A stretch of 64,000 bases of DNA from positions 11,709 through 75,708 of the forward strand of contig CALCHE010000228.1 in assembly GCA_937901145.1 (NCBI GenBank), read 5' to 3'. Both the position numbers and the translations under genes were made by a program. Shown here one piece after another: positions 298 to 51,499 of this stretch. Origin of the DNA: an uncultured Clostridia bacterium (lineage in GTDB: Bacteria > Bacillota > Clostridia > Oscillospirales > Acutalibacteraceae). Below the pieces are notes generated by a model that ran no database searches, had not been told where the DNA came from, and saw only the letters and a program-made list of their open reading frames with translations. Numbering within the stretch: the stretch's first letter is position 1; each line of letters starts with the position of its first letter.

Positions 298-2526
298 TTA
301 TTTTGTCGGAGGAGTGGTGGTAGCAGTTACTACGTCGATTATACCGCCTGTAGTCGCTACTTCTGATGTATTTTTCATGTCTTCCTCAGAAACTATAATG
401 CAGCTTCTTATTCTGTCGCCTGTGTCAAGATTATGCTCGATAATTTCGTTATTACCGATGGTGTAAAGAAGATTTCCGATGTATGTGCCTCGGAAAAGGT
501 CACTGAAATAATAGTCCCGATAGGTCACATTGTAGTCGCTACTGCTTACATTGTAATGGATGTAGCCAAGACTTTCTTTTATCTTGCCTTCTTCGATGGT
601 GAGGGTGTGAATACTATTTACGGTGTTTCCGTCACGGTAGTGGCTTACGGGAATACCTATCATATTTCTCTCTTTGTAGAAGAAGAGAGCCTTCGGGTTC
701 TCATTTACGAGAGAGTAAGCATCCCTGATAACGAAGGTGTCGGTTTCCTTCGGTTCTTTCTTGTCTCTTACATCGAAAACGGAAACCTTTACAGTGTCAA
801 ACTTAGCATTTTCGTCAGTTCCGTCATAGCCTATACCTACAAGATAGCCGTCAGCTATAGGGTGGATGTAGGTGGAATATCCCGGGATTTTCAGTTCACC
901 GGTAATTTCGGGCTTTGTCGGGTCAGAAAAGTCAATGATGAAAAGGGGGTCAGTATTATGGAATGTAACCACATAGCCTGTATCTCCCATAAAGCGCACA
1001 GCCTTTACCTGCTCATCCTTTGCGATGTCAGTAAGCTCACCGATGATGTTTAAGCTGTCGTCAAGAATATAAACACAGCTTACGTCCACTGCTTTTCGGT
1101 AGTCGTAGTAGGTAGCAGCTACACGGAGGTTGCCTTGATATTCGTCGAAGGAATACTGATTGAGACAGGTGCCTTTAAATGAGCCTGTGGCCTTGTGAGT
1201 AATCTCTGTGCCGTTAAGAGCGAAGGCGTTAACCACAGTTCTAACCGTTTCGTTATCGTCTCTGTTATAGTAATCAGCAGAATATACATAAAGATTTTTC
1301 GCTGTGGAGAAAATTTCAAATCCGTCACCCAGAACGGAAATGGCATCTACCTTACCTTCGGGTTTACTTGTGTCAAAGGCGGAAACTACGATATATCTCG
1401 TGCTGTCTTCATCTATCATATAGCATCTGGAATATGGTATACAGTCGCAGTTTACCTGAGGAATCGCATTCTTTTCTACCTCTTCTGCAGATGAGCCTCT
1501 TACGGTATAGTTGGTTACGGTATAGAGTATGCCGTCTACCATTCGAGAGGAAATGTAAGTGCCGTCCTGGTCGAAGCGTCTTATTTCCTTAGGTGCGTGT
1601 CTTTCACTGATGTCATAAATTACTGCATAGGTTTTCTCATTGTAGGTACAGACTGCAGTCAGTATGTCTCCGTCGAGATAAATATCCTGAATATACATGT
1701 CCGTGGTAAGGTCGCTGTGGTATTTTTCTGTGTTTCCTTTTTCTTTGATTTTTTCTAAAACCTCTGAATCCTTAAGCTCGATTTTCCCGCGGTAAACACG
1801 CTTCATTGATTCTGTGTCCACGATGGTGACAGCATTGGTATCCGAATAGCCTTTACCCGGGTAATTTACGATGTAAAGATATCTGCCGTCGTTTTTGATT
1901 ATGTCTCCCTCGTCTACATCGGTAACCTGTACATTGGTCGTGCCGTGAGGAACTGTGCCTGTGGCAGATTCACCTCGGTTTGCCTGTGCCTGAGGTACTG
2001 CTGTGGCAGCCATGGTAGGAGCCATATTCATGCTGTCTTCTGAAAGTGAATCAGTTGCCTCGTCGACGGTTGCTTCGAAAAGAACAATATCACTTGCATA
2101 GTTTATCACAGTATCGACATACTGATCAATTTTACCCTCGGCATACATTTTTACGAAATGGTTTTTAAGATCCTTTTCGCTTTTGGCCACCTTAAGGTTT
2201 GTTGATGTCGGTGCTTCTTTCTTTTCTTCTGTTTCCGGTTGTTCGTTATTCTGCTGCTCACTCGGAAGTACAGCAGGTGCAGTGGTGGGTGTACTCTGAT
2301 CTTCCACATCTACGAACTCACTTCTGAGACTTAATGAAAATACCGCTACGGTAATGATTGCGAGCATTGCTGCCGCAGAAAGCACCTTAGGTAAAATCTT
2401 TACCTTGACTTTCTTTTCGGGCGTGATACCTTTCTCTTGGAGCATTTTTATCATATTATTCTTCGAAAGGCTTTCGGGAAGCTCGATTTCTTTTTCGAAT
2501 TCTTCTTTTAATATATCTTTTTTCAT
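298..2526 (-). CDS. Membrane-anchored beta-propeller-domain protein, probable anti-sigma partner of the upstream ECF sigma
   Basis: 742-aa ORF. Short N-terminal cytoplasmic segment, one TM helix (LSAAAMLAIITVAVFSLSL), then a large extracytoplasmic domain with Beta_propel-type signatures (TNVQVTDVDEGDIIKNDGRYLYIV, NQYSFDEYQGNLRVAAT, VRFMGDTGYVVTFHNTDPLFIIDFSDPTKPEITGELKIPGYSTYIHP). Its start overlaps the sigma gene stop (ATGA, 2523-2526). Confidence 0.8.
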   Translation of the reverse strand: MKKDILKEEFEKEIELPESLSKNNMIKMLQEKGITPEKKVKVKILPKVLSAAAMLAIITVAVFSLSLRSEFVDVEDQSTPTTAPAVLPSEQQNNEQPETEEKKEAPTSTNLKVAKSEKDLKNHFVKMYAEGKIDQYVDTVINYASDIVLFEATVDEATDSLSEDSMNMAPTMAATAVPQAQANRGESATGTVPHGTTNVQVTDVDEGDIIKNDGRYLYIVNYPGKGYSDTNAVTIVDTESMKRVYRGKIELKDSEVLEKIKEKGNTEKYHSDLTTDMYIQDIYLDGDILTAVCTYNEKTYAVIYDISERHAPKEIRRFDQDGTYISSRMVDGILYTVTNYTVRGSSAEEVEKNAIPQVNCDCIPYSRCYMIDEDSTRYIVVSAFDTSKPEGKVDAISVLGDGFEIFSTAKNLYVYSADYYNRDDNETVRTVVNAFALNGTEITHKATGSFKGTCLNQYSFDEYQGNLRVAATYYDYRKAVDVSCVYILDDSLNIIGELTDIAKDEQVKAVRFMGDTGYVVTFHNTDPLFIIDFSDPTKPEITGELKIPGYSTYIHPIADGYLVGIGYDGTDENAKFDTVKVSVFDVRDKKEPKETDTFVIRDAYSLVNENPKALFFYKERNMIGIPVSHYRDGNTVNSIHTLTIEEGKIKESLGYIHYNVSSSDYNVTYRDYYFSDLFRGTYIGNLLYTIGNNEIIEHNLDTGDRIRSCIIVSEEDMKNTSEVATTGGIIDVVTATTTPPTK

Positions 2527-3068
2527 CTTAACACCTCATCTGTATGTAGCATCTGTCTTAATTTTTCCGTACTTCGCATAAGCTTAGAGCGTACTGTCGA
2601 GTCCTTGAGACTGAGCATCTTTCCTATTTCTTTACTGGTATAGCCGGAAATGTAAGAAAGAAGTATGATGGTCCGTTCTTCCTCTGTGAGCTTTTCGAGA
2701 GAATTTTTCAGACTGATTATTTCGCTCTGATCAGAATCCTCTCTGCATAAATCAATAAGTGAAGAAAGCTCGACCGTATCTCTTGACCTGATTTTTTCCG
2801 TGAGAGCTTTATTACAGCAGTTGTATAAAATTTTGAAAAGCCAGCTTTTGAAGGCTTCAGGCTTTTTCAGGGTACCTATTTTCTGAAAAGCTGTAAGCAC
2901 ACACTCACTTACACAGTCCTCGGCCAGGGGAGCAGAGCTTAAGTAATAAAAGGCGAACTTATACATATCCCTGCTGTAGGTCTCATAAAGAATTCCGAAG
3001 GCTTCAATATTTCCTTCTTTTGCTTTGATAACCAGATTGTTAATAATTTCTGAGCTCATATTTATCAC
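2523..3068 (-). CDS. ECF-type RNA polymerase sigma-70 family factor
   Basis: 181 aa with region 2 and region 4 organisation (C-terminal HTH YTSKEIGKMLSLKDSTVRSKLMRS). Translationally coupled to the downstream TM protein. Confidence 0.9.
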   Translation of the reverse strand: MINMSSEIINNLVIKAKEGNIEAFGILYETYSRDMYKFAFYYLSSAPLAEDCVSECVLTAFQKIGTLKKPEAFKSWLFKILYNCCNKALTEKIRSRDTVELSSLIDLCREDSDQSEIISLKNSLEKLTEEERTIILLSYISGYTSKEIGKMLSLKDSTVRSKLMRSTEKLRQMLHTDEVLR

Positions 3069-3194: not shown

Positions 3195-3356
3195 ATGGCT
3201 GATAAAGCGAAAAGAGACAGAATAATGAAAAAAGCACGTTCCGTAATAAAGGTAAGAACCGATGACGGACGCATTAAAAGTGATGTTAACGGCTCTTACA
3301 CAGGGGTTCCCTTCGACAAAAACGACAAACCCATACAGGATGCCGACGACCTCTGA
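3195..3356 (+). CDS. Small basic/acidic hypothetical protein (53 aa)
   Basis: Internal ATG of the 3087..3356 ORF, preceded by GAAAGGA 7 nt upstream. Product MADKAKRDRIMKKARSVIKVRTDDGRIKSDVNGSYTGVPFDKNDKPIQDADDL. The upstream 36 codons of the track ORF lie in AT-rich promoter DNA. No family recognised. Confidence 0.4.
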   Translation: MADKAKRDRIMKKARSVIKVRTDDGRIKSDVNGSYTGVPFDKNDKPIQDADDL

Positions 3357-3525: not shown

Positions 3526-3554
3526 TTGACTTTTGGAAAGCAATTCATTATAAT
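3526..3554 (+). promoter_or_regulatory. Sigma-A-type promoter for the Cys-rich secreted protein gene
   Basis: TTGACT (3526-3531), 17-nt spacer, TATAAT (3549-3554). Confidence 0.6.
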
Positions 3555-3611: not shown

Positions 3612-4070
3612 ATGAAAAAAGCTCTTTCAATCTTAATGTCAATTCTTATAATTGCTCTTTCCTTTACATTCATCGCATCTGCTGTTGATGCTTGTCCCGA
3701 ATGCGGAAGTAAAGAACATAAAGCTGAAAAGTGTGGTTGCTGCTTATATTGCCCCAACCTCGACACTGCACTTGTTGTTCCCTGTCTCAGAGACGGTGCA
3801 GGCATAAAAAAGGATCATAACGGCGAGATTGCATTCTGTTGTGGCGATTGTGACGGTTGGTATCCTTGCGACTGTAGCTGTGACTGCTGTGTAAAGGGTG
3901 CTTCCGATTTCGAAAACTCAAACAATAATCAGATATTAAATGAAAATCAGCAGCAGCAGGTTATCAGCGGTTTCCAGGCAGTTATGGCTCGTCTTCGTGA
4001 GTTCTTCGACAAACTCTTTGATACTATCTTCGAATTCTTAAGATTCGACGAAATTATGGGTAACAACTGA
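3612..4070 (+). CDS. Secreted Cys-rich protein (15 Cys) with a C-terminal amphipathic module related to the neighbouring small peptides
   Basis: ATG at 3612, 9 nt after GGAGG. Signal peptide MKKALSILMSILIIALSFTFIASA. Cys-dense core (CPEC, CGCC, FCCGDC, PCDCSCDCC), Asn/Gln linker, and tail FFDKLFDTIFEFLRFDEIMGNN. The track start at 3570 has no RBS. Confidence 0.8.
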   Translation: MKKALSILMSILIIALSFTFIASAVDACPECGSKEHKAEKCGCCLYCPNLDTALVVPCLRDGAGIKKDHNGEIAFCCGDCDGWYPCDCSCDCCVKGASDFENSNNNQILNENQQQQVISGFQAVMARLREFFDKLFDTIFEFLRFDEIMGNN

Positions 4071-4159: not shown

Positions 4160-4188
4160 TTGACTTTTTTATTTCTATCATATATAAT
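4160..4188 (+). promoter_or_regulatory. Sigma-A-type promoter for the P1-P2 peptide bicistron
   Basis: TTGACT (4160-4165), 17-nt spacer, TATAAT (4183-4188). Confidence 0.6.
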
Positions 4189-4239
4189 TTAAGCATATTA
4201 AGGGAAACCTTGATAAATTTAAAAAGGAGGCACACAATA

Positions 4240-4371
4240 ATGGAAAAATTCACTGAAATTCTCAAGCTCGTTCTTAACTATTTCTGGGAAATCTTCAAGT
4301 TCTGGGAAATCATCCCCGGCGATCTCGCTGACAAGATTGAAGACGAAGCTGACAAAGCAGCTCAGAACTAA
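4240..4371 (+). CDS. Small peptide P1 (43 aa), aromatic amphipathic N-terminal part plus acidic tail, no signal peptide
   Basis: AAAGGAGG then 8 nt to ATG. MEKFTEILKLVLNYFWEIFKFWEIIPGDLADKIEDEADKAAQN. Below the 60-aa cutoff of the ORF track. Confidence 0.6.
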   Translation: MEKFTEILKLVLNYFWEIFKFWEIIPGDLADKIEDEADKAAQN

Positions 4372-4418
4372 TTTAACTGATTAATTTAATCAAAAAATAC
4401 TTATAGGAGGAACACAAT

Positions 4419-4550
4419 AATGGATTGGGCAAAAAACTTTGCTGAAATGTGGGAACGTCTTTGGGACCTTCTTATTTTCCCCATTCTTAAAATGTTTGGC
4501 ATTGAAAAGAATGAAGACGGCAACCTTGAATACGTAGAAAAAGCTGAATA
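4419..4550 (+). CDS. Small peptide P2 (43 aa), same family as P1
   Basis: TAGGAGG then 8 nt to ATG. Its initiation region aggaggaacacaataatgga differs at one position from that of P1 (aggaggcacacaataatgga). MDWAKNFAEMWERLWDLLIFPILKMFGIEKNEDGNLEYVEKAE. Confidence 0.6.
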
Positions 4551-4580
4551 ATTCTATCTGAATTAAACAATTGTTTAAGG

Positions 4581-4615
4581 ACACAACCCACCTTTCGGTG
4601 GGTTGTGTTTTTTTC
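4581..4615 (+). terminator. Intrinsic terminator after P2
   Basis: ACACAACCCACC-tttc-GGTGGGTTGTGT (12-bp perfect stem) followed by a T-run. Confidence 0.9.
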
Positions 4616-4625
4616 TTTCTAAATA

Positions 4626-4654
4626 TTGACATTTCTGAGCAGTAGTTATATAAT
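4626..4654 (+). promoter_or_regulatory. Sigma-A-type promoter for peptide P3
   Basis: TTGACA (4626-4631), 17-nt spacer, TATAAT (4649-4654). Confidence 0.6.
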
Positions 4655-4686
4655 TATATTGTAATAATTATTGCAGGAGGAACTGT

Positions 4687-4791
4687 ATGATGAAAAACAT
4701 TGAAGCTTACTTTAAAGGTGTCGTTGACTGGATAGAGAGACTTTTCACTATTATTTTCGAATTCCTCGGCGATATCGGAGTAGAGGCATAA
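4687..4791 (+). CDS. Small peptide P3 (34 aa), same family
   Basis: GCAGGAGG then 6 nt to ATG. MMKNIEAYFKGVVDWIERLFTIIFEFLGDIGVEA. The segment RLFTIIFEFLGD matches KLFDTIFEFLRFD at the C-terminus of the 3612 protein, and both share the DNA string TTCGAATTC. Confidence 0.6.
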   Translation: MMKNIEAYFKGVVDWIERLFTIIFEFLGDIGVEA

Positions 4792-4806
4792 AATTGTTTA
4801 AAGTTT

Positions 4807-4840
4807 AAGAGACTGTTCATAACGAACAGTCTCTTCTTTT
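4807..4840. terminator. Bidirectional intrinsic terminator (P3 on +, dnaJ on -)
   Basis: AAGAGACTGTTC-ataac-GAACAGTCTCTT followed by CTTTTTT. The stem sequence resembles the terminator at 4088. Confidence 0.8.
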
Positions 4841-13185: not shown

Positions 13186-13557
13186 ATGCTTGCAGATAAT
13201 CTCAGACTTTTAAGAAAAAATTTCAAACTGACTCAGCAGGAGGTAGCTGACATTCTCGGCATTGACAGAAGCACTTATACCTTTTACGAAGCCGGAAAAA
13301 GCACACCTTCGAAAGAAAATATAGTTAAGCTTTGTGATATTTTCAATGTGACAGTCGGCTATCTTTTCGGTGTGGAAAAGAACTGCCCTGAGTTGAAGGT
13401 TGCTAACCGTTCTGATTTCATAGATGAAAACCTTCACGGACTTAAGGAAATATCCAGAAATGAAAAGTTCATTCTTATGGCTTACAGAAGCCTCGACAGT
13501 GAAAGCAAGGAACAGTTTGTAGATGTGGTGAAAAAATTCCTCAAGGAAACAAAATAA
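13186..13557 (+). CDS. XRE-family helix-turn-helix transcriptional regulator
   Basis: 123 aa. N-terminal HTH_3 pattern (LRKNFKLTQQEVADILGIDRSTYTFYEAGKSTPS). Confidence 0.9.
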   Translation: MLADNLRLLRKNFKLTQQEVADILGIDRSTYTFYEAGKSTPSKENIVKLCDIFNVTVGYLFGVEKNCPELKVANRSDFIDENLHGLKEISRNEKFILMAYRSLDSESKEQFVDVVKKFLKETK

Positions 13558-14187: not shown

Positions 14188-14217
14188 TAAATCAATAATT
14201 ATTAGGAGGACTAAACA

Positions 14218-14370: not shown

Positions 14371-14402
14371 ATCCTCCGATGAATTTCGGAGGATTTTCTT
14401 TT
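14371..14402 (+). terminator. Intrinsic terminator after P4
   Basis: ATCCTCCGA-tgaatt-TCGGAGGAT followed by TTTCTTTT. Confidence 0.8.
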
Positions 14403-14502: not shown

Positions 14503-15306
14503 ATGAATAATTTTATCGAATACATTGACAAGTCTTTTGAAAATATGAAGGAAACAGAATCACTGTACCGTTATAAGCAGAAGCTTTTGGCACAAATGAC
14601 GGAAAGAGCAAACGAACTTGTGGCTGCAGGTCTTAAGGATGATAAAATTATATGTGCCATAATTATGGATGAATATCCTGATCTTGCAGGCAAATATAAA
14701 GAATCGATGAAGAAAAAAACTGAAATGAGCAAAAAATCAAGGAAGAGCTCCCTTATTGCTGTCGGCACTATGGGCGGCATCTTCGCCGTTGTGTGTCTTT
14801 ATCTTGCTGTCAGCTTCCTTACAGGTGACTGGGGCAAAACATGGATGCTTCTTCTCGGCGGAATTTTTGCAGTTCTTGTTTTTATGTTTGTTGTCATTGC
14901 CGGAAGACTTACTAAAAAAACAGGAAAATTCGGCTTTGTTTCACGGATACTGTGTGTAGGTGCAGTAGCTCTTATAGCTACATATATGTTCCTTTTTACC
15001 ACGATAATTGTTCCTGTTCAGGGAAGCTGGATTATATTTGTACTGGCGATTCCCTTTGCCATGATTTTCGATATGCTATTATCTTATAAATTCAATAAAA
15101 AGACTGGAATTTTCAGTGTGCTTCTTTACATACCCGCTGTATTTACACTGTTTTATGTAGTTCTCGGTATAGCGAAGGTTCTTCCCTGGCATCCGGGTTG
15201 GCTCCTTATACTTTTGGGTATATTTGTAGATTTTGTGGTAGTAACTGTACGACTTCTTTCAGGTACGAAAGTAAAAGAGGAGGATGAAGGATGGAGCGAA
15301 GATTAA
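14503..15306 (+). CDS. Multi-pass membrane protein with an N-terminal soluble helical domain
   Basis: 267 aa. About 85 aa of charged helical N-terminus, then 5-6 hydrophobic spans. RBS GGAGGGG upstream. No specific family recognised; it resembles 'permease-prefix' membrane proteins. Confidence 0.75.
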   Translation: MNNFIEYIDKSFENMKETESLYRYKQKLLAQMTERANELVAAGLKDDKIICAIIMDEYPDLAGKYKESMKKKTEMSKKSRKSSLIAVGTMGGIFAVVCLYLAVSFLTGDWGKTWMLLLGGIFAVLVFMFVVIAGRLTKKTGKFGFVSRILCVGAVALIATYMFLFTTIIVPVQGSWIIFVLAIPFAMIFDMLLSYKFNKKTGIFSVLLYIPAVFTLFYVVLGIAKVLPWHPGWLLILLGIFVDFVVVTVRLLSGTKVKEEDEGWSED

Positions 15307-16574
15307 ATGCCGAGCTTTGGGATAAGATGCACTATCTATTCCGAGATTTTAACGACAGAATGGTTCATCTCGAGCTTCATTACGATTATGAAATTAACTA
15401 TGAAGCATTCCGGACGGTGCTTATCTGCTTCTTTGAAAAGGCACCTGTTTTCCATTCCGGCTTCGTGGATAATAAGGTAAGACCCTACTGGGAGGTAAAG
15501 CCCTACGATATCGACGATGTAATTACACTTAAGCATATTTCAGATGAAGAGGTTCCATTCGCTGTGGATAACTTTCTTACTCAGTATATTCCGCCTGAGA
15601 GCAGTTTACAGATGAAGGTAGGAGTGTTCTATCACAGCGGTAAAACTACCGTATGCTTTGTTGAGAATCATATGTGTATGGATGGCGGTGATTTCAAATA
15701 TTTCATAAGTGCCTTCTGTAAAAATTACAATGATTACATCGAAAAGGGAATATTACCTCTTAATTTTAAAGAGGGCACACGCTCTTATGAGTCGGTTTAT
15801 GATGATTTCACTCCCGCTCAGGAAAAAATGGCCAGAAACCTTTATAAAAATGTCTGTGCTAAGGATGACCACAAATTTCCTCTCACAGAGGACAGAGAGG
15901 AAGACCGTAGCTTTATAGCTCGAAGAAAGCTGACTGAGGAAGATTTCCTTATTCTTAAGCAGGTCGGCAAAAAATACGGTGCTACAGTAAACGACGTGCT
16001 TGTTGCTGCGTATTTTGACGCACTTTATAATCTGGCAGAATATAACCCTGATGACAGTGTTACCATTTCTTGCGCTATTGACCTTAGACGTCATATCAAA
16101 GACAGTACAGATCAGGGCATAACTAACCATACAGCTTTTATGCAGTGCAGAATACCCCGTCTCGGTGATGATATAATCGAAACACTGAAGTATGTGGTAA
16201 ACTCAGCCAATCTTTTCAAAAAAGATAAGTTTATGGGCCTTTACGGCCTGCCGCTTCTTCGTTTCGGTTATAAAATATTACCTCACGCCGCCAGTGAGGA
16301 GATAATCAAGATAGGCTATTCAAATCCGCTTCTGGCTATGAGTAATATCGGTATTCTTGACCATAAAGCTCTGGCTCTCGAGGGACATGAGCCTACTGAC
16401 GGATTTATGACAGGCGCAGTCAAGTATAAGCCCTATGTTCTCCTTTCAGCCACATCAATGAAAAATGTCATCACTCTTTCGATGTGTGTCAGAGGTAACA
16501 GTGATGATAAAAAAATTGTAGAACGGTTCTTCGATCTTTATGAGGAAAGCGTAGAAAAATTAAAAAATTCATAA
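15291..16574 (+). CDS. Stand-alone condensation/CAT-superfamily acyltransferase-like protein (HxxxDG motif)
   Basis: 427 aa. NHMCMDGGD matches the HHxxxDG catalytic motif of the NRPS C-domain, WS-DGAT and PapA families. Start overlaps the preceding gene by 16 nt, with RBS AGAGGAGGA 5-6 nt upstream. Confidence 0.7.
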   Translation: MERRLNAELWDKMHYLFRDFNDRMVHLELHYDYEINYEAFRTVLICFFEKAPVFHSGFVDNKVRPYWEVKPYDIDDVITLKHISDEEVPFAVDNFLTQYIPPESSLQMKVGVFYHSGKTTVCFVENHMCMDGGDFKYFISAFCKNYNDYIEKGILPLNFKEGTRSYESVYDDFTPAQEKMARNLYKNVCAKDDHKFPLTEDREEDRSFIARRKLTEEDFLILKQVGKKYGATVNDVLVAAYFDALYNLAEYNPDDSVTISCAIDLRRHIKDSTDQGITNHTAFMQCRIPRLGDDIIETLKYVVNSANLFKKDKFMGLYGLPLLRFGYKILPHAASEEIIKIGYSNPLLAMSNIGILDHKALALEGHEPTDGFMTGAVKYKPYVLLSATSMKNVITLSMCVRGNSDDKKIVERFFDLYEESVEKLKNS

Positions 16575-28601: not shown

Positions 28602-29135
28602 ATGAATATGTCAAAAAGAATTCACCGACTTGTCCTGTCGGGAGTTATCGCTGCTTTGTATGTAGCACTCACTCTTGTTCAGGAAATGATTTTTCCTACC
28701 AGTGCCACTATGGCTGTACAGTTCCGTGTTTCGGAAGCACTTACGGTGCTGTCCCTGTTTACACCGGCAGCTATACCCGGTCTTACGGTTGGCTGTTTTA
28801 TAGCCAATTTCTCTGTGCTCGGAGCGTTGCCTACTGATATAGTTCTCGGCTCGTTGGCATCTTTTTTAGCGTGTCTTTTTATGTACAGGTTAAGGAATTT
28901 TACTGTGAAGGGATTTCCTTTTTTATCTTTGCTTATGCCTGCACTTTTTAACGGAATTATTATCGGTGCAGAAATCGAGATTTTCTTTATTGAAGGACCC
29001 TTTAATTTCGTCAGCTTTCTTATCCAGGCAGGCCTTGTAGCCTTAGGAGAGTTAGGCGTACTTTACACTCTTGGTGCCGCTCTGGTCAGAGTAATAAAGG
29101 ATAAAAAGCTCGGCAGGTATCTTAACGGTGTTTAA
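28602..29135 (+). CDS. queT: Queuosine-precursor transporter QueT
   Basis: 177 aa, 5-6 TM, QueT-like N-terminus (RLVLSGVIAALYVALTLV..., RVSEALTVL). RBS AAAGGAG 8 nt upstream. Confidence 0.85.
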   Translation: MNMSKRIHRLVLSGVIAALYVALTLVQEMIFPTSATMAVQFRVSEALTVLSLFTPAAIPGLTVGCFIANFSVLGALPTDIVLGSLASFLACLFMYRLRNFTVKGFPFLSLLMPALFNGIIIGAEIEIFFIEGPFNFVSFLIQAGLVALGELGVLYTLGAALVRVIKDKKLGRYLNGV

Positions 29136-29173
29136 TATAAAATTTTAATATAAAAATCAAGGAGGAAAAACTA

Positions 29174-30682
29174 ATGGAAAACAAGCTTTCCAAAAGAACA
29201 TGGCTGAACATCATTGTTTTCAGCTTTATGGGCGGTATTGCATGGAATCTCGAAAACATGTACTTCAATACCTTTCTGTTCGATTCTGTCTATGACGGTG
29301 TGTCAAAGGCCAAACTCGAAGAATGGGGTATTATGGCTCCCACTACAGCAATCAGCCGAATGGTTGCGCTTTCAGCTATCACTGCTGTTGTTACCACATT
29401 TATTATGGGTACTCTCAGTGAAAAAATGAAAAAACGTAAGGTGTTCATCTCTGTCGGCTACATTGTATGGGGTGTAATTACTGCTTCTTTCGGATTTATT
29501 TCTAAAGAGAATATCGCGTCTCTGTTCGGTCTTACAGACGATGCAAAAATTCTTCTTTTCACAGTATGGGCAGTTATTCTTATGGATATGGTTATGACCT
29601 TTATGGGTTCTACAAGTAACGACTCGGCCTTTAATGCCTGGACAACAGACGTTACAAATCCTGTGGTCAGACCTACAGTTGAAACTGTTCTCCTTTTTGT
29701 CGGACTTTTTGCTATGCTCGCTGTTATGGGTGTGGGCAGTCTTTGTCAGGCTGATGTAGTATCTTATCAGGTATTCTTCCTCGCTCTGGGTATTATAGTG
29801 AGCCTTAGCGGTGTTTTTGGCTTATTTGCGCTTAAAGATCCTGAAATCAAGGGTGAAAAGACAAACTCAAATTATTGGAGAGATCTTTTCTACGGCTTCA
29901 GACCTTCTGTAGTCAAGGAAAACTCCATGCTTTATCTTGCTCTCGTAGCTATCTGTATCTATAATATCGCCATTCAGGTTTTCTTCCCGTACCTGTTTGT
30001 TTATCTCGGAAGTGTAATTATTCCCGGTGCTGTATTTGATGTCAAAACAATCATCGTAGCTGTTCTTGCAGTTGCAGGACTTGCTGCAGGTGTGATTCTT
30101 CTCCTCAAAGCATCCGGTAAGGATAAGGTAAAGGCATATATTATTACTATTGTGCTCTTTATTGCAGGTCTTTCAGTTCTTTCCACATCCACAAATATTG
30201 CTGTTGTTCTCATCGGTATTGCACCCACACTCATCGGTTATGTAGTTCTTCAGATTCAGCTCAATGCATCTGTACGTGACTATATTCCTGAGGATAAGGT
30301 TGGTCTTTTCCAGGGTATAAGAATGATTTTCTTCGTACTTATTCCTATGGTTGTAGGTCCTTGGCTCGGTGATATAGCTTGCCGTACATCAAACTTTACT
30401 ATTATCGAATACGGTGAGGAGAAACTCGTACCCTCTACAAGTATGTTCTTCTATGCAGCTGTTGTTGCTCTTCTCATTTTTGTACCTCTTTACCTTCTTA
30501 TGGGAAAGGATAAGAATGGTTCTAAAGACAATAAAGGTAAGTTCATTCCCGCTATCATTGTTGCAGTTATAACTGTAATTGTTGCCGCAGTTGTTGTGAA
30601 TCTTCTCGGTAACAGCGGAGCGACTCCTACTGATCTTGCTCCCGGTGATATAGTCGAAACCACGGCCGCATTACTCCAGTAA
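29174..30682 (+). CDS. MFS-type transporter (about 12 TM), substrate unknown
   Basis: 502 aa, hydrophobic throughout. RBS AAGGAGG. Only 38 nt after queT with no terminator between them. Confidence 0.8.
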   Translation: MENKLSKRTWLNIIVFSFMGGIAWNLENMYFNTFLFDSVYDGVSKAKLEEWGIMAPTTAISRMVALSAITAVVTTFIMGTLSEKMKKRKVFISVGYIVWGVITASFGFISKENIASLFGLTDDAKILLFTVWAVILMDMVMTFMGSTSNDSAFNAWTTDVTNPVVRPTVETVLLFVGLFAMLAVMGVGSLCQADVVSYQVFFLALGIIVSLSGVFGLFALKDPEIKGEKTNSNYWRDLFYGFRPSVVKENSMLYLALVAICIYNIAIQVFFPYLFVYLGSVIIPGAVFDVKTIIVAVLAVAGLAAGVILLLKASGKDKVKAYIITIVLFIAGLSVLSTSTNIAVVLIGIAPTLIGYVVLQIQLNASVRDYIPEDKVGLFQGIRMIFFVLIPMVVGPWLGDIACRTSNFTIIEYGEEKLVPSTSMFFYAAVVALLIFVPLYLLMGKDKNGSKDNKGKFIPAIIVAVITVIVAAVVVNLLGNSGATPTDLAPGDIVETTAALLQ

Positions 30683-38999: not shown

Positions 39000-40562
39000 T
39001 TATCTGTTATTGTATTCGGAATATTCCAGTACATTTCTGCACAGGTAAATCAGCATAAGTGAAATTATGCCATTGAGTATTGCTATAAAAGTGTATATGA
39101 TTTCGGGATTGAAGGGGAATGCCATACCTGTTATGACTCCCACAGTTACAGCTGGCAGAGAGAAGATTACTGTAAGAAGGAAATAAACCATAACTGAAAA
39201 AAATCTTTTCTCCGAGTCGCCTGCAAATCTTTGTAATATAAGATTAACACCTATGAACATTATACCAAAGGAAAATCTTGCCAGAACCATAGCTGCTCCT
39301 TCGATTACGCTGCATGAGCCGAGAAGGATAAGCGGAATAAAGCAAATTAAGCTTTCGGCTGCCATAAGAGGAATGTCCGACTTTAAAAGATAAATAAGCT
39401 TTCTGAAATTACTTTCGGGTATAAGATAGATGTAGGGATAGGTGAATTCCTTAGCCCATCTGCCTATGCATACTGTCATAGACATAGTATATACGTTTAT
39501 TACGAAAAGTGCAATATTTTCTTCCGAAAACATCAGACAGTAAACGAAAGAAAATCCTGCCATAAGAAAGGACAAGGGACTCAGAAGCAGAGGATTACTT
39601 CTTTTATTCTCTTTTCTGTGTTTATACGTTATGACAGATGCACCGTAGCCTTTTGTGATGCCTGCTTTTCCGATTTTTACGTTTCTGGGAGCGTTTTCAG
39701 CAGCTTTGCCTTCTTTTCGGGCAGTTATGGCTGAATGACTTATCTGTGTTGCTTTAAGTACATCCTCGTAAAAATCTCCTTTTATTCCGGAGAGCACCAG
39801 GTAGAAGGTAAGGCATAAAAAAGTAAAAATGGCTATGCCTGTAATTAATGAATGAACATTACCTTCTATAGCTCCCTGAACCGTGAAGGAAACAAATCCG
39901 CTGACAGGGAAAAGGTACATTATTTTCTCTCTGGAGGCGTAAACAAGGCTTTCAAGGGATATTCCGGAAATATATGTTCTGCAAAGAAGTATGGCGATGA
40001 ACATAGCGAATACCCCGTAAAAAATGCTCTTGCCTCTTAACACCTTTCTGTCATCTGAACAGGTCAGTGTGTATATAACTGTAGCAAACATCTGTCCTAT
40101 AAAAACCACTGCCCCATAGCCGACAAGTACGGAGAAAAGCGACGAAACAGGTAAGCCGTAAATATTTTTTACCACAGAAGACTGATAAAGGATGAAAAGT
40201 CCCAGAGTAAGGGATTTTCCCAGCTGCTGAAAAAGACCGAAAGTAAGCACGCTTTTTTCTTTCAGAGGTGCCGTAAACATCAGGTTAACATCAGCCATGG
40301 AAAACATTGATGCACCGTTTATGAATCCGTTTTTTGCCGTCATAAAGAATACGTAAGTATAAAGGGCGAACACTATTGCATAAAACTCTGTTTTATCTCT
40401 TAAAAAGCTTTCTGGAGGAGTTGATGTTGCACTCGTATAAAAGCTGAAAACTAATATAAAGAGAAAGAATAACAGAAAAATAATTTTTGAGGGCTTTCTG
40501 ATAAATTCTTTTATGATGTTTTTCGCTCTTCTTGTGACAAGATAAACATAAGGTATCATCAT
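39000..40562 (-). CDS. Multi-pass membrane component of a putative ABC exporter
   Basis: 520 aa, about 12-14 TM. Overlaps the upstream ATPase gene stop by 4 nt. Confidence 0.8.
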   Translation of the reverse strand: MMIPYVYLVTRRAKNIIKEFIRKPSKIIFLLFFLFILVFSFYTSATSTPPESFLRDKTEFYAIVFALYTYVFFMTAKNGFINGASMFSMADVNLMFTAPLKEKSVLTFGLFQQLGKSLTLGLFILYQSSVVKNIYGLPVSSLFSVLVGYGAVVFIGQMFATVIYTLTCSDDRKVLRGKSIFYGVFAMFIAILLCRTYISGISLESLVYASREKIMYLFPVSGFVSFTVQGAIEGNVHSLITGIAIFTFLCLTFYLVLSGIKGDFYEDVLKATQISHSAITARKEGKAAENAPRNVKIGKAGITKGYGASVITYKHRKENKRSNPLLLSPLSFLMAGFSFVYCLMFSEENIALFVINVYTMSMTVCIGRWAKEFTYPYIYLIPESNFRKLIYLLKSDIPLMAAESLICFIPLILLGSCSVIEGAAMVLARFSFGIMFIGVNLILQRFAGDSEKRFFSVMVYFLLTVIFSLPAVTVGVITGMAFPFNPEIIYTFIAILNGIISLMLIYLCRNVLEYSEYNNR

Positions 40563-41248
40563 TTGTCACCTTCCGTAACTGCGAAGAAAATTTCGCTGAG
40601 AGAAGCGCCTTCCTGTCCTTTGAGAATCTTTTCCTTAAGCTGTCCGTCTACCATTATATAAGCAGTATCCCAATAATCCTCTATGCTGTCAATCATGTGA
40701 GTGCTTATAAGAACCGAAGCACCCTCATTTTTAAGCTTCAGAATGATTTCTTTCAGATTTTTAATGGCGTGGGGGTCAAGACCGACCATAGGCTCATCAA
40801 AAACAACCACTTTTGGTCTGTGGATAAGAGCACAGCAGATGGACAGTTTTTGCTGCATACCCTTTGAGAGTTCTTTGCAGAGCTTATCTTTTTTATCCTT
40901 CAGCTCGAAAAGCTCCATGAGCTCATCAGCGTAGCCGTCATCGTCCTTTTTGTATGCTCTCAGTATGAACTCTAAGTGTTCACCGACAGTAAGCATATCG
41001 TAAACAGCGGGCATTTCGGGTATATATCCGATCTGAGATTTTGCATAAATACTTTTGTTGCTTTTACCGTCAACAGATATTTCGCCTTCAAAGCGAAGAA
41101 GACCTACGATGCTTTTTATAAGAGTGGATTTTCCCGCGCCGTTAGGTCCTAAAAGAATGGCGATTTCTCCGTCGTTTACTGTTAGGGATATATTGTCGTT
41201 TGCTTTCAGTTTCCCGTATTTTTTAGTTGCATTTTTGATGTCAAGCAT
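40559..41248 (-). CDS. ABC transporter ATP-binding protein
   Basis: 229 aa. Walker A GPNGAGKST, signature LSKGMQQK, Walker B VVVFDEP. Confidence 0.95.
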   Translation of the reverse strand: MLDIKNATKKYGKLKANDNISLTVNDGEIAILLGPNGAGKSTLIKSIVGLLRFEGEISVDGKSNKSIYAKSQIGYIPEMPAVYDMLTVGEHLEFILRAYKKDDDGYADELMELFELKDKKDKLCKELSKGMQQKLSICCALIHRPKVVVFDEPMVGLDPHAIKNLKEIILKLKNEGASVLISTHMIDSIEDYWDTAYIMVDGQLKEKILKGQEGASLSEIFFAVTEGDK

Positions 41249-51286: not shown

Positions 51287-51499
51287 ATGAAAAAGTTTTG
51301 CTGTGAGGATATGAAGTCTCATATTTATTTGAGATGTGAAGATAAGGTTCCGGATAATGGAGATAAAGAAGATAAACCCGTATGGTTTTATTCTGATGAT
51401 AATGAATACGGTATCCCTCTTGCTGATTTAGTCGGCGGTTTTATTTCATCGTATATTGTCATAAAATATTGCCCTTGGTGTGGCAGAAGGCTTGATTAA
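51287..51499 (+). CDS. Small hypothetical protein with C-terminal CxxC
   Basis: 70 aa. RBS AAGGAGAA. KYCPWCGRRL at the C-terminus. No family recognised. Confidence 0.55.
   Translation: MKKFCCEDMKSHIYLRCEDKVPDNGDKEDKPVWFYSDDNEYGIPLADLVGGFISSYIVIKYCPWCGRRLD

Follow-up and report, generated by a model that had tools for sequence, protein, structure and literature searches.

Organization of the peptide genes

The window analysed here, a 64-kb stretch of DNA from an uncultured Clostridia bacterium (contig CALCHE010000228.1, positions 11,709 to 75,708), carries three tandem small genes, P1, P2 and P3, directly downstream of the gene for a secreted Cys-rich protein (CRP), and a related gene, P4, at a second locus. 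All four encode short, acidic, amphipathic peptides, and they were compared with 37 related loci (numbered from L001) collected by exact-sequence look-ups and homologue searches. The genes and their population pattern are solid and were unexpected, whilst their function we infer from sequence. The peptide genes and their expression signals are listed below.

4160..4188, + strand: promoter-like site of the P1-P2 operon (TTGACT-17-TATAAT, 11/12 in a consensus scan)
4225..4230, + strand: AGGAGG ribosome-binding site of P1
4240..4371, + strand: P1, 43 aa, orthogroup G1
4405..4410, + strand: AGGAGG ribosome-binding site of P2
4420..4551, + strand: P2, 43 aa, orthogroup G2
4577..4612, + strand: terminator of the P1-P2 operon, 16-bp stem and T run
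4626..4654, + strand: promoter-like site of P3 (TTGACA-17-TATAAT, 12/12 in a consensus scan)
4687..4791, + strand: P3, 34 aa, orthogroup G3, the most conserved of the peptides
4807..4835, + strand: terminator of P3
14159..14187, + strand: promoter-like site of P4 (TTGACA-17-TAAAAT)
14204-14209, + strand: AGGAGG of P4
14218..14352, + strand: P4, 44 aa, orthogroup G4, net charge -7 (MELIEKLYLQILNLILDLLTAFGADTSVVEEMINATKKEESEEA)
14371-14394, + strand: terminator of P4

The original prediction, made from the letters of the window alone, had described P1-P3; its coordinates for P1 and P3 and its translations agree with ours, whereas P2 had been placed at 4419-4550, one base off. Each open reading frame (ORF) does have the strong Shine-Dalgarno site claimed for it, a perfect AGGAGG, but the spacer given as 6-8 nt is in fact 9 nt at P1 and P2 and 6 nt at P3. 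A second in-frame ATG of P3 at 4690 (both ATGs lie within 4687-4692) has a spacer of 9 nt and yields a product of 33 aa, and L004, L021 and L024, from the same species as the window, encode only this 33-aa form, with the start MKNIEAY. Given these strains and a spacer like that of P1 and P2, the second ATG may be the real start of P3. Promoter and terminator scans gave near-consensus promoters and strong terminators, and fit the predicted arrangement of a common promoter and terminator for P1 and P2 and a separate set for P3. Neither signal was found between P1 and P2 in the consensus scans, which points to one P1-P2 operon plus a separate P3 unit. Judged by their signals only, the peptides would be highly expressed, as had been proposed.

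Other details of the original prediction were reproduced, namely a 20-nt repeat with one base different in the initiation regions of P1 and P2, net charges of -5 (P1), -5 (P2) and -3 (P3), a Gly at residue 27, 27 and 28, respectively, and the aromatic content. A scan of all 64 kb for small ORFs (20-90 aa, ATG start, Shine-Dalgarno-like motif upstream) recovered this design with AGGAGG only at P1-P3 and P4. The genes had been called unannotated; they are unnamed, yet all four of the exact peptides have already been called as genes in public collections, including an NCBI assembly.

Coding status and conservation

The order CRP, P1-like, P2-like and P3-like gene was constant, with AGGAGG at every peptide gene, in loci from the same species as the window (L001-L007 and L021-L024), from a sister species (L009) and from more distant relatives (L010 and L014-L018). 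The three-gene order with its AGGAGG sites recurred in L001-L010 and L014-L024 altogether. Between species, synonymous sites were near saturation and amino acids were retained, the sign of purifying selection (dN/dS 0.07-0.3 over all orthologues). By peptide, the ratio of non-synonymous to synonymous divergence (dN/dS) was 0.07-0.23 for P3, 0.175 for P1 (window versus L009) and 0.106 for P2 (window versus L008), the synonymous excess was significant (Fisher tests, p = 1e-6 to 2e-3), and indels among orthologues and alleles were frame-preserving. The same gene order, kept frames and synonymous bias together show P1, P2, P3 and P4 to be real protein-coding genes. The homologue check suggested with the original prediction therefore returned orthologues with kept frames and synonymous-biased substitution, and not a lack of homologues or frame-breaking indels. 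That P1-P3 are non-coding, chance ORFs in small RNAs or in intergenic DNA 3' of dnaJ, is a reading that their shortness and their annotation by automatic gene calls only might invite, but it is vanishingly improbable and already effectively refuted by the comparative data: frames and order are conserved across species at saturated synonymous divergence and low dN/dS, ribosome-binding sites are perfect throughout, indels preserve the frame and no Rfam match was found.

Family membership and distribution

As had been predicted, no described family fits the peptides, none having been found among Pfam, NCBIfam, PHROGs, PADLOC, PDB and Rfam. No peptide matched the phenol-soluble modulin (PSM) families in Pfam-A or NCBIfam even at E<=10; the sole hit, of P1 to a glucan-branching-enzyme model (E=0.035), was rejected as irrelevant. 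Foldseek searches of the CRP and P1 models against the PDB returned nothing meaningful, and literature searches on Clostridia and Acutalibacteraceae brought up no description of comparable peptides. An alignment of all peptides gave 44 clusters in a word-indexed search, all of 33-49 aa and unnamed, and HMMER, run exhaustively against 1.84 billion representative proteins, gave only 15 clusters at E<=1e-3, all of 32-49 aa and again unnamed. The source records were Clostridia, Ruminococcaceae and Acutalibacteraceae metagenome-assembled genomes (MAGs), and the labels of some name sheep-rectum or rumen (RUG) assemblies. The distribution of the family is limited to a small clade of uncultured Clostridia from gut and rumen (Acutalibacteraceae-like MAGs). 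A genome-collection scan of the wider context yielded at least 5 loci, and a metagenome scan with the CRP tail 3 short contigs.

Five orthogroups were distinguished, G1 (P1), G2 (P2), G3 (P3), G4 (P4) and G5, the last (MDFFKD..., present in L008) having no copy in the window by tblastn. Family traits are an M-[ED] start, an aromatic heptad helix of 20-25 residues, an acidic C-terminal segment, an AGGAGG of its own and a position downstream of CRP; an aromatic-Gly turn is a trait of G1, G2, G4 and G5. A family hidden Markov model (HMM) scored P1-P4, which were in its training set, at 38-53 bits and the rest of the window, bar the CRP tail, at 9 bits or less. The unity of the family is independently backed by leave-one-group-out searches and by profile-profile comparisons (hhalign) judged against reversed and column-shuffled controls, which score at most 19. 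G1 was linked to G4/G5 with a score of 32 (probability 93%, controls <=17) and G2 to G4/G5 with a score of 30 (probability 90%, controls <=17.5), with a weaker link between G2 and G3 (score 23, probability 68%). The mutual, paralogous relationship claimed for the peptides was thus borne out by the scores of the P1 and P2 groups against the P4/G5 group. Direct P1-P2 and P1-P3 homology was within the reversed and shuffled controls, these peptides being connected only via the G4/G5 group. A paralogous family is therefore supported and a simple P1/P2 duplication is not: of the tandem duplication that had been proposed, the near-identical 20-nt initiation repeat stands as the sole basis, and protein similarity between the two is not above noise.

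The Cys-rich protein and its P3-like tail

The gene upstream of P1 has the following features.

3526..3554, + strand: promoter-like site of CRP (TTGACT-17-TATAAT, 11/12)
3612..4070, + strand: CRP, 152 aa, with a signal peptide, a Cys-rich middle and a long C-terminal amphipathic helix
3786..3941, + strand: hypervariable patch of CRP, residues 59-110
3942..4067, + strand: C-terminal helix module of CRP (...REFFDKLFDTIFEFLRFDEIMGNN), nearly invariant in the family and homologous to P3
4087..4112, + strand: terminator of CRP, with a stem (TAAGAGACTGT) common to the P3 terminator

The signal peptide is of Sec type (MKK, a hydrophobic run, then ASA before V, an AxA motif). The middle holds about 16 Cys residues in motifs such as CxCC..C and CC..C.G...C.C.C.CC and may bind metal. 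AlphaFold2 placed helices at residues 2-23 and 111-149 with a mean pLDDT (predicted local distance difference test score) of 66 and low confidence in the middle domain. No Pfam, PDB or Foldseek match to CRP was found. Its homologues form 27 clusters, all unnamed, in which the middle is about 50% identical and the tail near-invariant (...REFFDKLFDAIFEFLRFDEIMGNN).

Profile comparison linked P3 to the CRP tail with a probability of 94% (E 1.3e-7, score 33, controls <=19). At the DNA level, positions 4008-4037 in CRP match 4735-4764 in P3, and the 3' end of CRP with its terminator is colinear with the P3 gene and terminator. Sequence comparison therefore shows the CRP tail to be homologous to P3, and the colinearity, which includes the terminator, indicates either that P3 is the CRP 3' end copied into a gene of its own or that CRP gained a P3-like gene by fusion.

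Linkage of CRP to the peptides extends across the family. One to five peptide genes follow CRP in L008-L012, L014-L018, L021-L024 and L026, including the distant relatives L011, L012 and L026, where CRP is followed by one family peptide each. The sole CRP-like gene with no peptide gene after it is the most distant one, the high-GC gene of L013.

Allelic variation within the species

Contigs from the species of the window were nearly identical to it around the cassette, the dnaJ and extracytoplasmic function (ECF) sigma flanks being 98-99.5% identical with a synonymous divergence (dS) of about 0.04. Promoters, terminators, P3 and the CRP tail were 92-100% identical between same-species contigs. 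The P1 ORF, by comparison, was 68% identical between alleles (dS 2.5), the P2 ORF 67-73% (dS about 1.0), and CRP residues 59-110 had 75% nucleotide identity (dS 1.6, dN/dS 0.11). These divergent patches were sharply bounded, and dN/dS between alleles was 0.1-0.34. P2 has a conserved Trp-rich head and a variable tail, and its entire ORF is swapped for divergent alleles in same-species strains; in the divergent alleles of P1 and P2, heads vary as much as tails.

Four CRP-P1-P2 haplotype combinations were found, from independent samples: CRPa-P1a-P2a (window and L003), CRPb-P1a-P2b (L001 and L002), CRPb-P1a'-P2a' (L021 and L024) and CRPb-P1c-P2c (L022 and L023). The occurrence of each divergent haplotype in two independent samples argues against assembly artefacts. 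In the nine contigs of this species whose P4 locus was examined, P4 was 98.5-100% identical; the samples behind four of them (L029, L033, L035 and L036) gave divergent P1/P2 or P2 haplotypes as well. Co-variation of P2 and CRP alleles, hinted at by L001 and L002, was rejected, as with L021-L024 the same CRP allele is seen beside three P2 alleles.

These sequence comparisons show P1, P2 and the CRP middle to be ancient, independently reassorting alleles within one species. Polymorphism that is bounded by ORFs, ancient and recombining is characteristic of bacteriocin/immunity, pheromone (pherotype) and surface-antigen loci, and the pattern seen in P1, P2 and CRP speaks for a function in which the cell interacts with other cells, with phages or with the host. 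Neither the linkage to CRP with its P3-like tail nor the allelic variation of P1 and P2 had figured in the original prediction, and both change what the most likely biology is.

Predicted structure and physical properties of the peptides

The peptides are 33-50 aa long and have no signal peptide: their N-termini are acidic and there is no Sec-type n/h/c region. Each begins with an aromatic heptad-pattern helix of 20-25 residues, followed in the P1, P2 and P4 types by an aromatic-Gly turn and an acidic second segment. AlphaFold2, run for P1 with a 23-sequence alignment, placed a helix at residues 2-21, a turn at 22-26 (WEIIP) and a second helix at 27-42 (pLDDT 79), with Gly27 directly after the predicted turn. 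P1 is thus predicted to be a helical hairpin, in which the aromatic-Gly would mark the turn and what had been described as an acidic tail would be the second helix. The second segment of G1 has conserved aromatic positions of its own, and P3 has no second helix. Of the common plan that had been proposed, the helical head followed by a Gly is present in P1-P3; the Gly is not universal, however, being replaced by Asp in P2 orthologues and absent from the P1 orthologue of L008, and the acidic tail of P1 is a predicted helix.

Hydrophobic moments over 18 residues were 0.59-0.65 for P1-P3, and amphipathic moments (0.5-0.65) were similar to those of delta-toxin and PSM-alpha3 in the same computation. 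Read from the sequences, the hydrophobic residues of all heads are spaced 3-4 apart, a spacing that would suit helix-helix packing or interfacial binding. Inside P1, at 4282-4314, a 15-nt direct repeat with 18-nt spacing (TTCTGGGAAATCTTC / TTCTGGGAAATCATC) encodes FWEIF / FWEII, which indicates a recent six-codon duplication within the putative P1 helix in this lineage.

Cassette layout and neighbouring genes

In L008 all components form a single cassette in the order XRE-type helix-turn-helix (HTH) gene, SP2, CRP, G1, G2, G3, G5, G4, with the P4 orthologue last. In the window the cassette is split, with CRP-P1-P2-P3 beside dnaJ and HTH-SP2-P4 beside uvrC. One contiguous cassette in L008 against two loci in the window shows that the CRP-peptide block moves as a unit. 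The two further cassette genes of the window are:

13186..13557, + strand: XRE-type HTH regulator gene, upstream of SP2; precedes SP2-CRP(-peptides) in L008 and L025
13640..14038, + strand: SP2, a 132-aa signal-peptide protein, syntenic with the cassette in L008 and L025

The HTH protein is a possible regulator of the cassette, judging by its position. In SP2 the signal peptide is followed by an acidic linker of Thr, Glu and Pro, by an amphipathic helix rich in Lys (KFAKIALKLVSVYLKVAKIFG) and by an acidic tail, a layout that recalls a prepro-antimicrobial peptide; one same-species contig (L030) carries an allele 89.5% identical to that of the window. SP2 was considered as a signal-peptide-fused member of the peptide family and rejected, with only 9 bits in the family HMM and 1.9% in hhalign, so that by these tests it is syntenic and not homologous.

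The genes around the peptides are either the ECF sigma/anti-sigma pair, a 53-aa gene, CRP and dnaJ, or uvrC, HTH, SP2, queT and a major facilitator superfamily (MFS) gene. The statement of the original prediction that no exporter, immunity or modification gene lies at the locus holds for recognizable families. ATP-binding cassette (ABC) genes after P4 were examined as a candidate exporter and rejected, being of importer type (BPD_transp_2). A 520-aa protein matching PF16962, 'putative ABC exporter', is encoded at 39000-40562 on the - strand. The next ORF, of 229 aa, probably encodes the ATPase that goes with it (39000-41248 together).

The ECF sigma gene (2523-3068) and an overlapping gene for a 742-aa anti-sigma-like protein with a Beta_propel domain occupy 298-3068 on the - strand, divergent from the cassette; synteny of the pair is kept in most loci, with L008 as an exception. 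At 3198-3356, in the gap from the ECF sigma gene to CRP, lies a conserved gene of 52-53 aa (MADKAKRDRIMKKARSVIKVRTDDGRIKSDVNGSYTGVPFDKNDKPIQDADDL), found in the genus of the window and in L010; it matched no family, and the L008 cassette lacks it. Directly 3' of P4, at 14503-16574, are genes for two proteins, one of 267 aa that weakly resembles VIT1/DUF2207_C and one of 427 aa with a Condensation-domain hit (E 5e-8). Both were kept in same-species contigs; L008 has neither at this place, its P4 orthologue being followed by queT and an MFS gene. In the window queT and the MFS gene lie at 28602-30682.

The CRP-peptide block of the window adjoins an hrcA-grpE-dnaK-dnaJ operon, and in L011 (6001-8800), from a distant Acutalibacteraceae MAG, CRP and one peptide lie beside ctsR-/mcsA-like sequences, as judged by eye. 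The heat-shock regulon neighbourhood in both is probably a coincidence. Unrelated to the cassette, a 70-aa ORF at 51287-51499 has an AGGAG site and paired Cys motifs (MKKFCCEDMKSH...CPWCGRRLD).

Possible roles of the peptides

The reading that we tentatively prefer, though we would not give it even chances, is that the peptides are strain-variable interaction peptides that are released by a non-Sec route and act together with CRP. P1-P4 would retain the initiator Met and, in the manner of PSMs and leaderless bacteriocins, reach the outside independently of Sec, and would act at the membrane/wall interface by packing their hydrophobic, aromatic seams against each other, against the P3-like tail of CRP, or both. 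P1 and P2, encoded on one mRNA with near-identical ribosome-binding sites, may be made in roughly 1:1 amounts. The conserved helices, P3 and the CRP tail, would be assembly or anchoring parts, whilst the hypervariable P1, P2 and CRP residues 59-110 would carry strain specificity toward other cells, be it to antagonize them, to tell kin apart or to escape recognition by phages or the host. A more specific and distinctly unlikely form of the idea is a strain-specific surface system of a new kind in anaerobic gut Clostridia, in which acidic hairpins exported by some non-Sec route would dock by their aromatic seams on the invariant helix of CRP, a probable metal binder, in a hetero-oligomeric bundle of helices, P1, P2 and CRP 59-110 would serve kin discrimination or antagonism, and P3, as a free copy of the docking helix, would cap or regulate assembly.

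Several observations weigh against release and joint action with CRP. The characterized leaderless bacteriocins listed in PMC6131525 are all cationic, with charges of +3 to +7 and a pI above 10, whereas the cassette peptides are anionic (-3 to -7, pI 4.05-4.45, i.e. 4.0-4.5), which disfavours binding to anionic bacterial membranes. No linked exporter, immunity or processing gene was found at any locus examined, and the only exporter-like system of the window, the PF16962 ABC_export gene, is 25-35 kb from the peptide genes and unlinked. Leaderless peptides and the Sec-exported CRP begin in different compartments, and the allele data refute co-variation and give no genetic evidence for a specific P2-CRP contact. 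The AlphaFold2 models are of single chains only (monomers), and all data come from MAGs and metagenome contigs.

The alternative that survives best, with perhaps a quarter of the weight, is that the peptides are intracellular or inner-leaflet micro-proteins, such as SpoVM-like peripheral membrane binders, small regulators or escorts; they might, for example, attach to the helix at the C-terminus of the CRP precursor before or during export, or P3 might compete with that helix at this stage. The lack of a signal peptide and of a linked exporter, the mimicry of the CRP tail by P3 and the tight gene linkage to CRP all fit, and the predicted acidic, soluble hairpin would suit a cytosolic protein. 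Housekeeping partners inside the cell, however, would not usually show polymorphism as extreme, ancient and reassorting as that of P1 and P2; the alleles of P2 and CRP do not co-vary; and the sole detectable homologue of P3 is the tail of a Sec-exported protein, which points to action outside the cytoplasm.

It is less likely again that the peptides are PSM-like surfactants, an abundant detergent for biofilm structuring, spreading, vesicle release or substrate wetting that has no strain-specific target. They do resemble beta-type PSMs, being negatively charged and 33-50 aa long, forming amphipathic helices, keeping the initiator Met and coming from tandem genes. PSM genes are likewise unlinked to their exporters. 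PSM export proceeds via PmtCD/AbcA, transporters that select by hydrophobicity and not by sequence (PMC9974410). On the other side, the peptides have no sequence relation to Pfam PSM families, and surfactant action leaves both the ORF-bounded hypervariable alleles and the pairing with CRP and its P3-like tail unexplained.

Pheromone precursors of AgrD or double-glycine type, in which the N-terminal helix is a leader and the variable segment after the aromatic-Gly the released, strain-specific signal, are a very improbable reading. AgrD resembles P1-P3 in its size (about 45 aa), N-terminal amphipathic helix, variable middle, acidic C-terminal tail and charge of about -5, and the P2 tail differs between strains as pherotypes do. 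P1-P3 and their variants and orthologues, however, have no Cys or Ser at a conserved position for a thiolactone or lactone ring and no AgrD-model hit, and no agrB, C39-peptidase transporter, histidine kinase or Rgg/RNPP receptor was found in any locus. In divergent alleles, variation in P1 and P2 affects the heads as much as the tails. The peptides also lack a double-glycine leader: their motif is aromatic-Gly, with Asp for Gly in P2 orthologues, and lies in the predicted helix-helix turn, and the loci hold no C39 transporter.

Few products of gut and rumen bacteria are as little charted as small leaderless peptides, knowledge of them coming almost entirely from staphylococci and lactic acid bacteria, and the cassette offers a compact, easily synthesized set from uncultured Clostridia. 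If exported and active, these peptides would be a new class of anionic interaction peptides and would imply an unknown export route, and the cassette would be a marker locus for strain-level competition in rumen or gut. If they are instead intracellular partners of CRP, they would be a case of micro-proteins mimicking the very tail of their partner.

Comparison with known systems

The WXG100 proteins of the type VII secretion system (T7SS) are reminiscent only in the predicted hairpin of P1 with its aromatic-Gly turn; the peptides have 33-50 aa against about 100 aa, there was no Pfam WXG100 hit, and no T7SS genes were found in the loci. For the partner protein, the E. coli enzymes PBP5 and PBP6 offer a parallel, as they are exported and anchored to the membrane by a C-terminal amphipathic helix. 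CRP, like them, has the features of a Sec-exported protein with a long terminal amphipathic helix that could lie on the outer membrane face. Its helix differs from the PBP anchors in being nearly invariant, Phe-rich and slightly acidic and in occurring also as the free, leaderless P3; we know of no free-standing copy of a PBP anchor helix.

The nearest designs are those of beta-type PSM loci and of two- or multi-peptide leaderless bacteriocins, and the peptides belong to neither, on the evidence of family models for both and of charge and cluster content for the bacteriocins. PSM-beta1/2 and SLUSH-A/B/C are staphylococcal beta-type PSMs whose exporters are not encoded beside the peptide genes. 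Features common to them and the cassette are peptides of about 43-44 aa without a signal peptide, two or three tandem genes, amphipathic helices, a net negative charge, the lack of an adjacent exporter and comparable hydrophobic moments. Our peptides thus have the form of PSMs, as short, predicted amphipathic helical peptides without a signal peptide; no Pmt/AbcA-type ABC transporter, as in PSM export, adjoined any locus examined. The cassette further differs from beta-type PSMs in having no sequence similarity to them (no Pfam hit), in a lineage that differs at phylum level (Clostridia MAGs), in the predicted layout of P1 (an N-terminal amphipathic aromatic helix followed by an acidic second helix), in the pairing with a secreted Cys-rich protein that bears a homologous helix, and in its hypervariable alleles.

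Strain-variable loci are typical of bacteriocins. The cassette shares with enterocin L50/MR10/DD14, aureocin A70 and garvicin KS the arrangement of two to four related 30-44-aa peptides from adjacent genes and their Trp/Phe-rich, helical character. Its peptides, which show no leader-like or double-glycine motif and come from related genes in tandem, may likewise be mature as translated. Multi-peptide leaderless bacteriocins leave the cell without Sec and are Trp/Phe-rich, helical and leaderless products of adjacent genes (PMC6131525). Their clusters carry dedicated transporter and/or immunity genes, whereas neither adjoined the peptides at the cassette loci, and there is no sequence or family match between the two. 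Among leaderless amphipathic peptides the set described here is unusual in being anionic, in including a predicted hairpin, in its homology to the C-terminal tail of a Cys-rich protein that is secreted, and in its hypervariable alleles.

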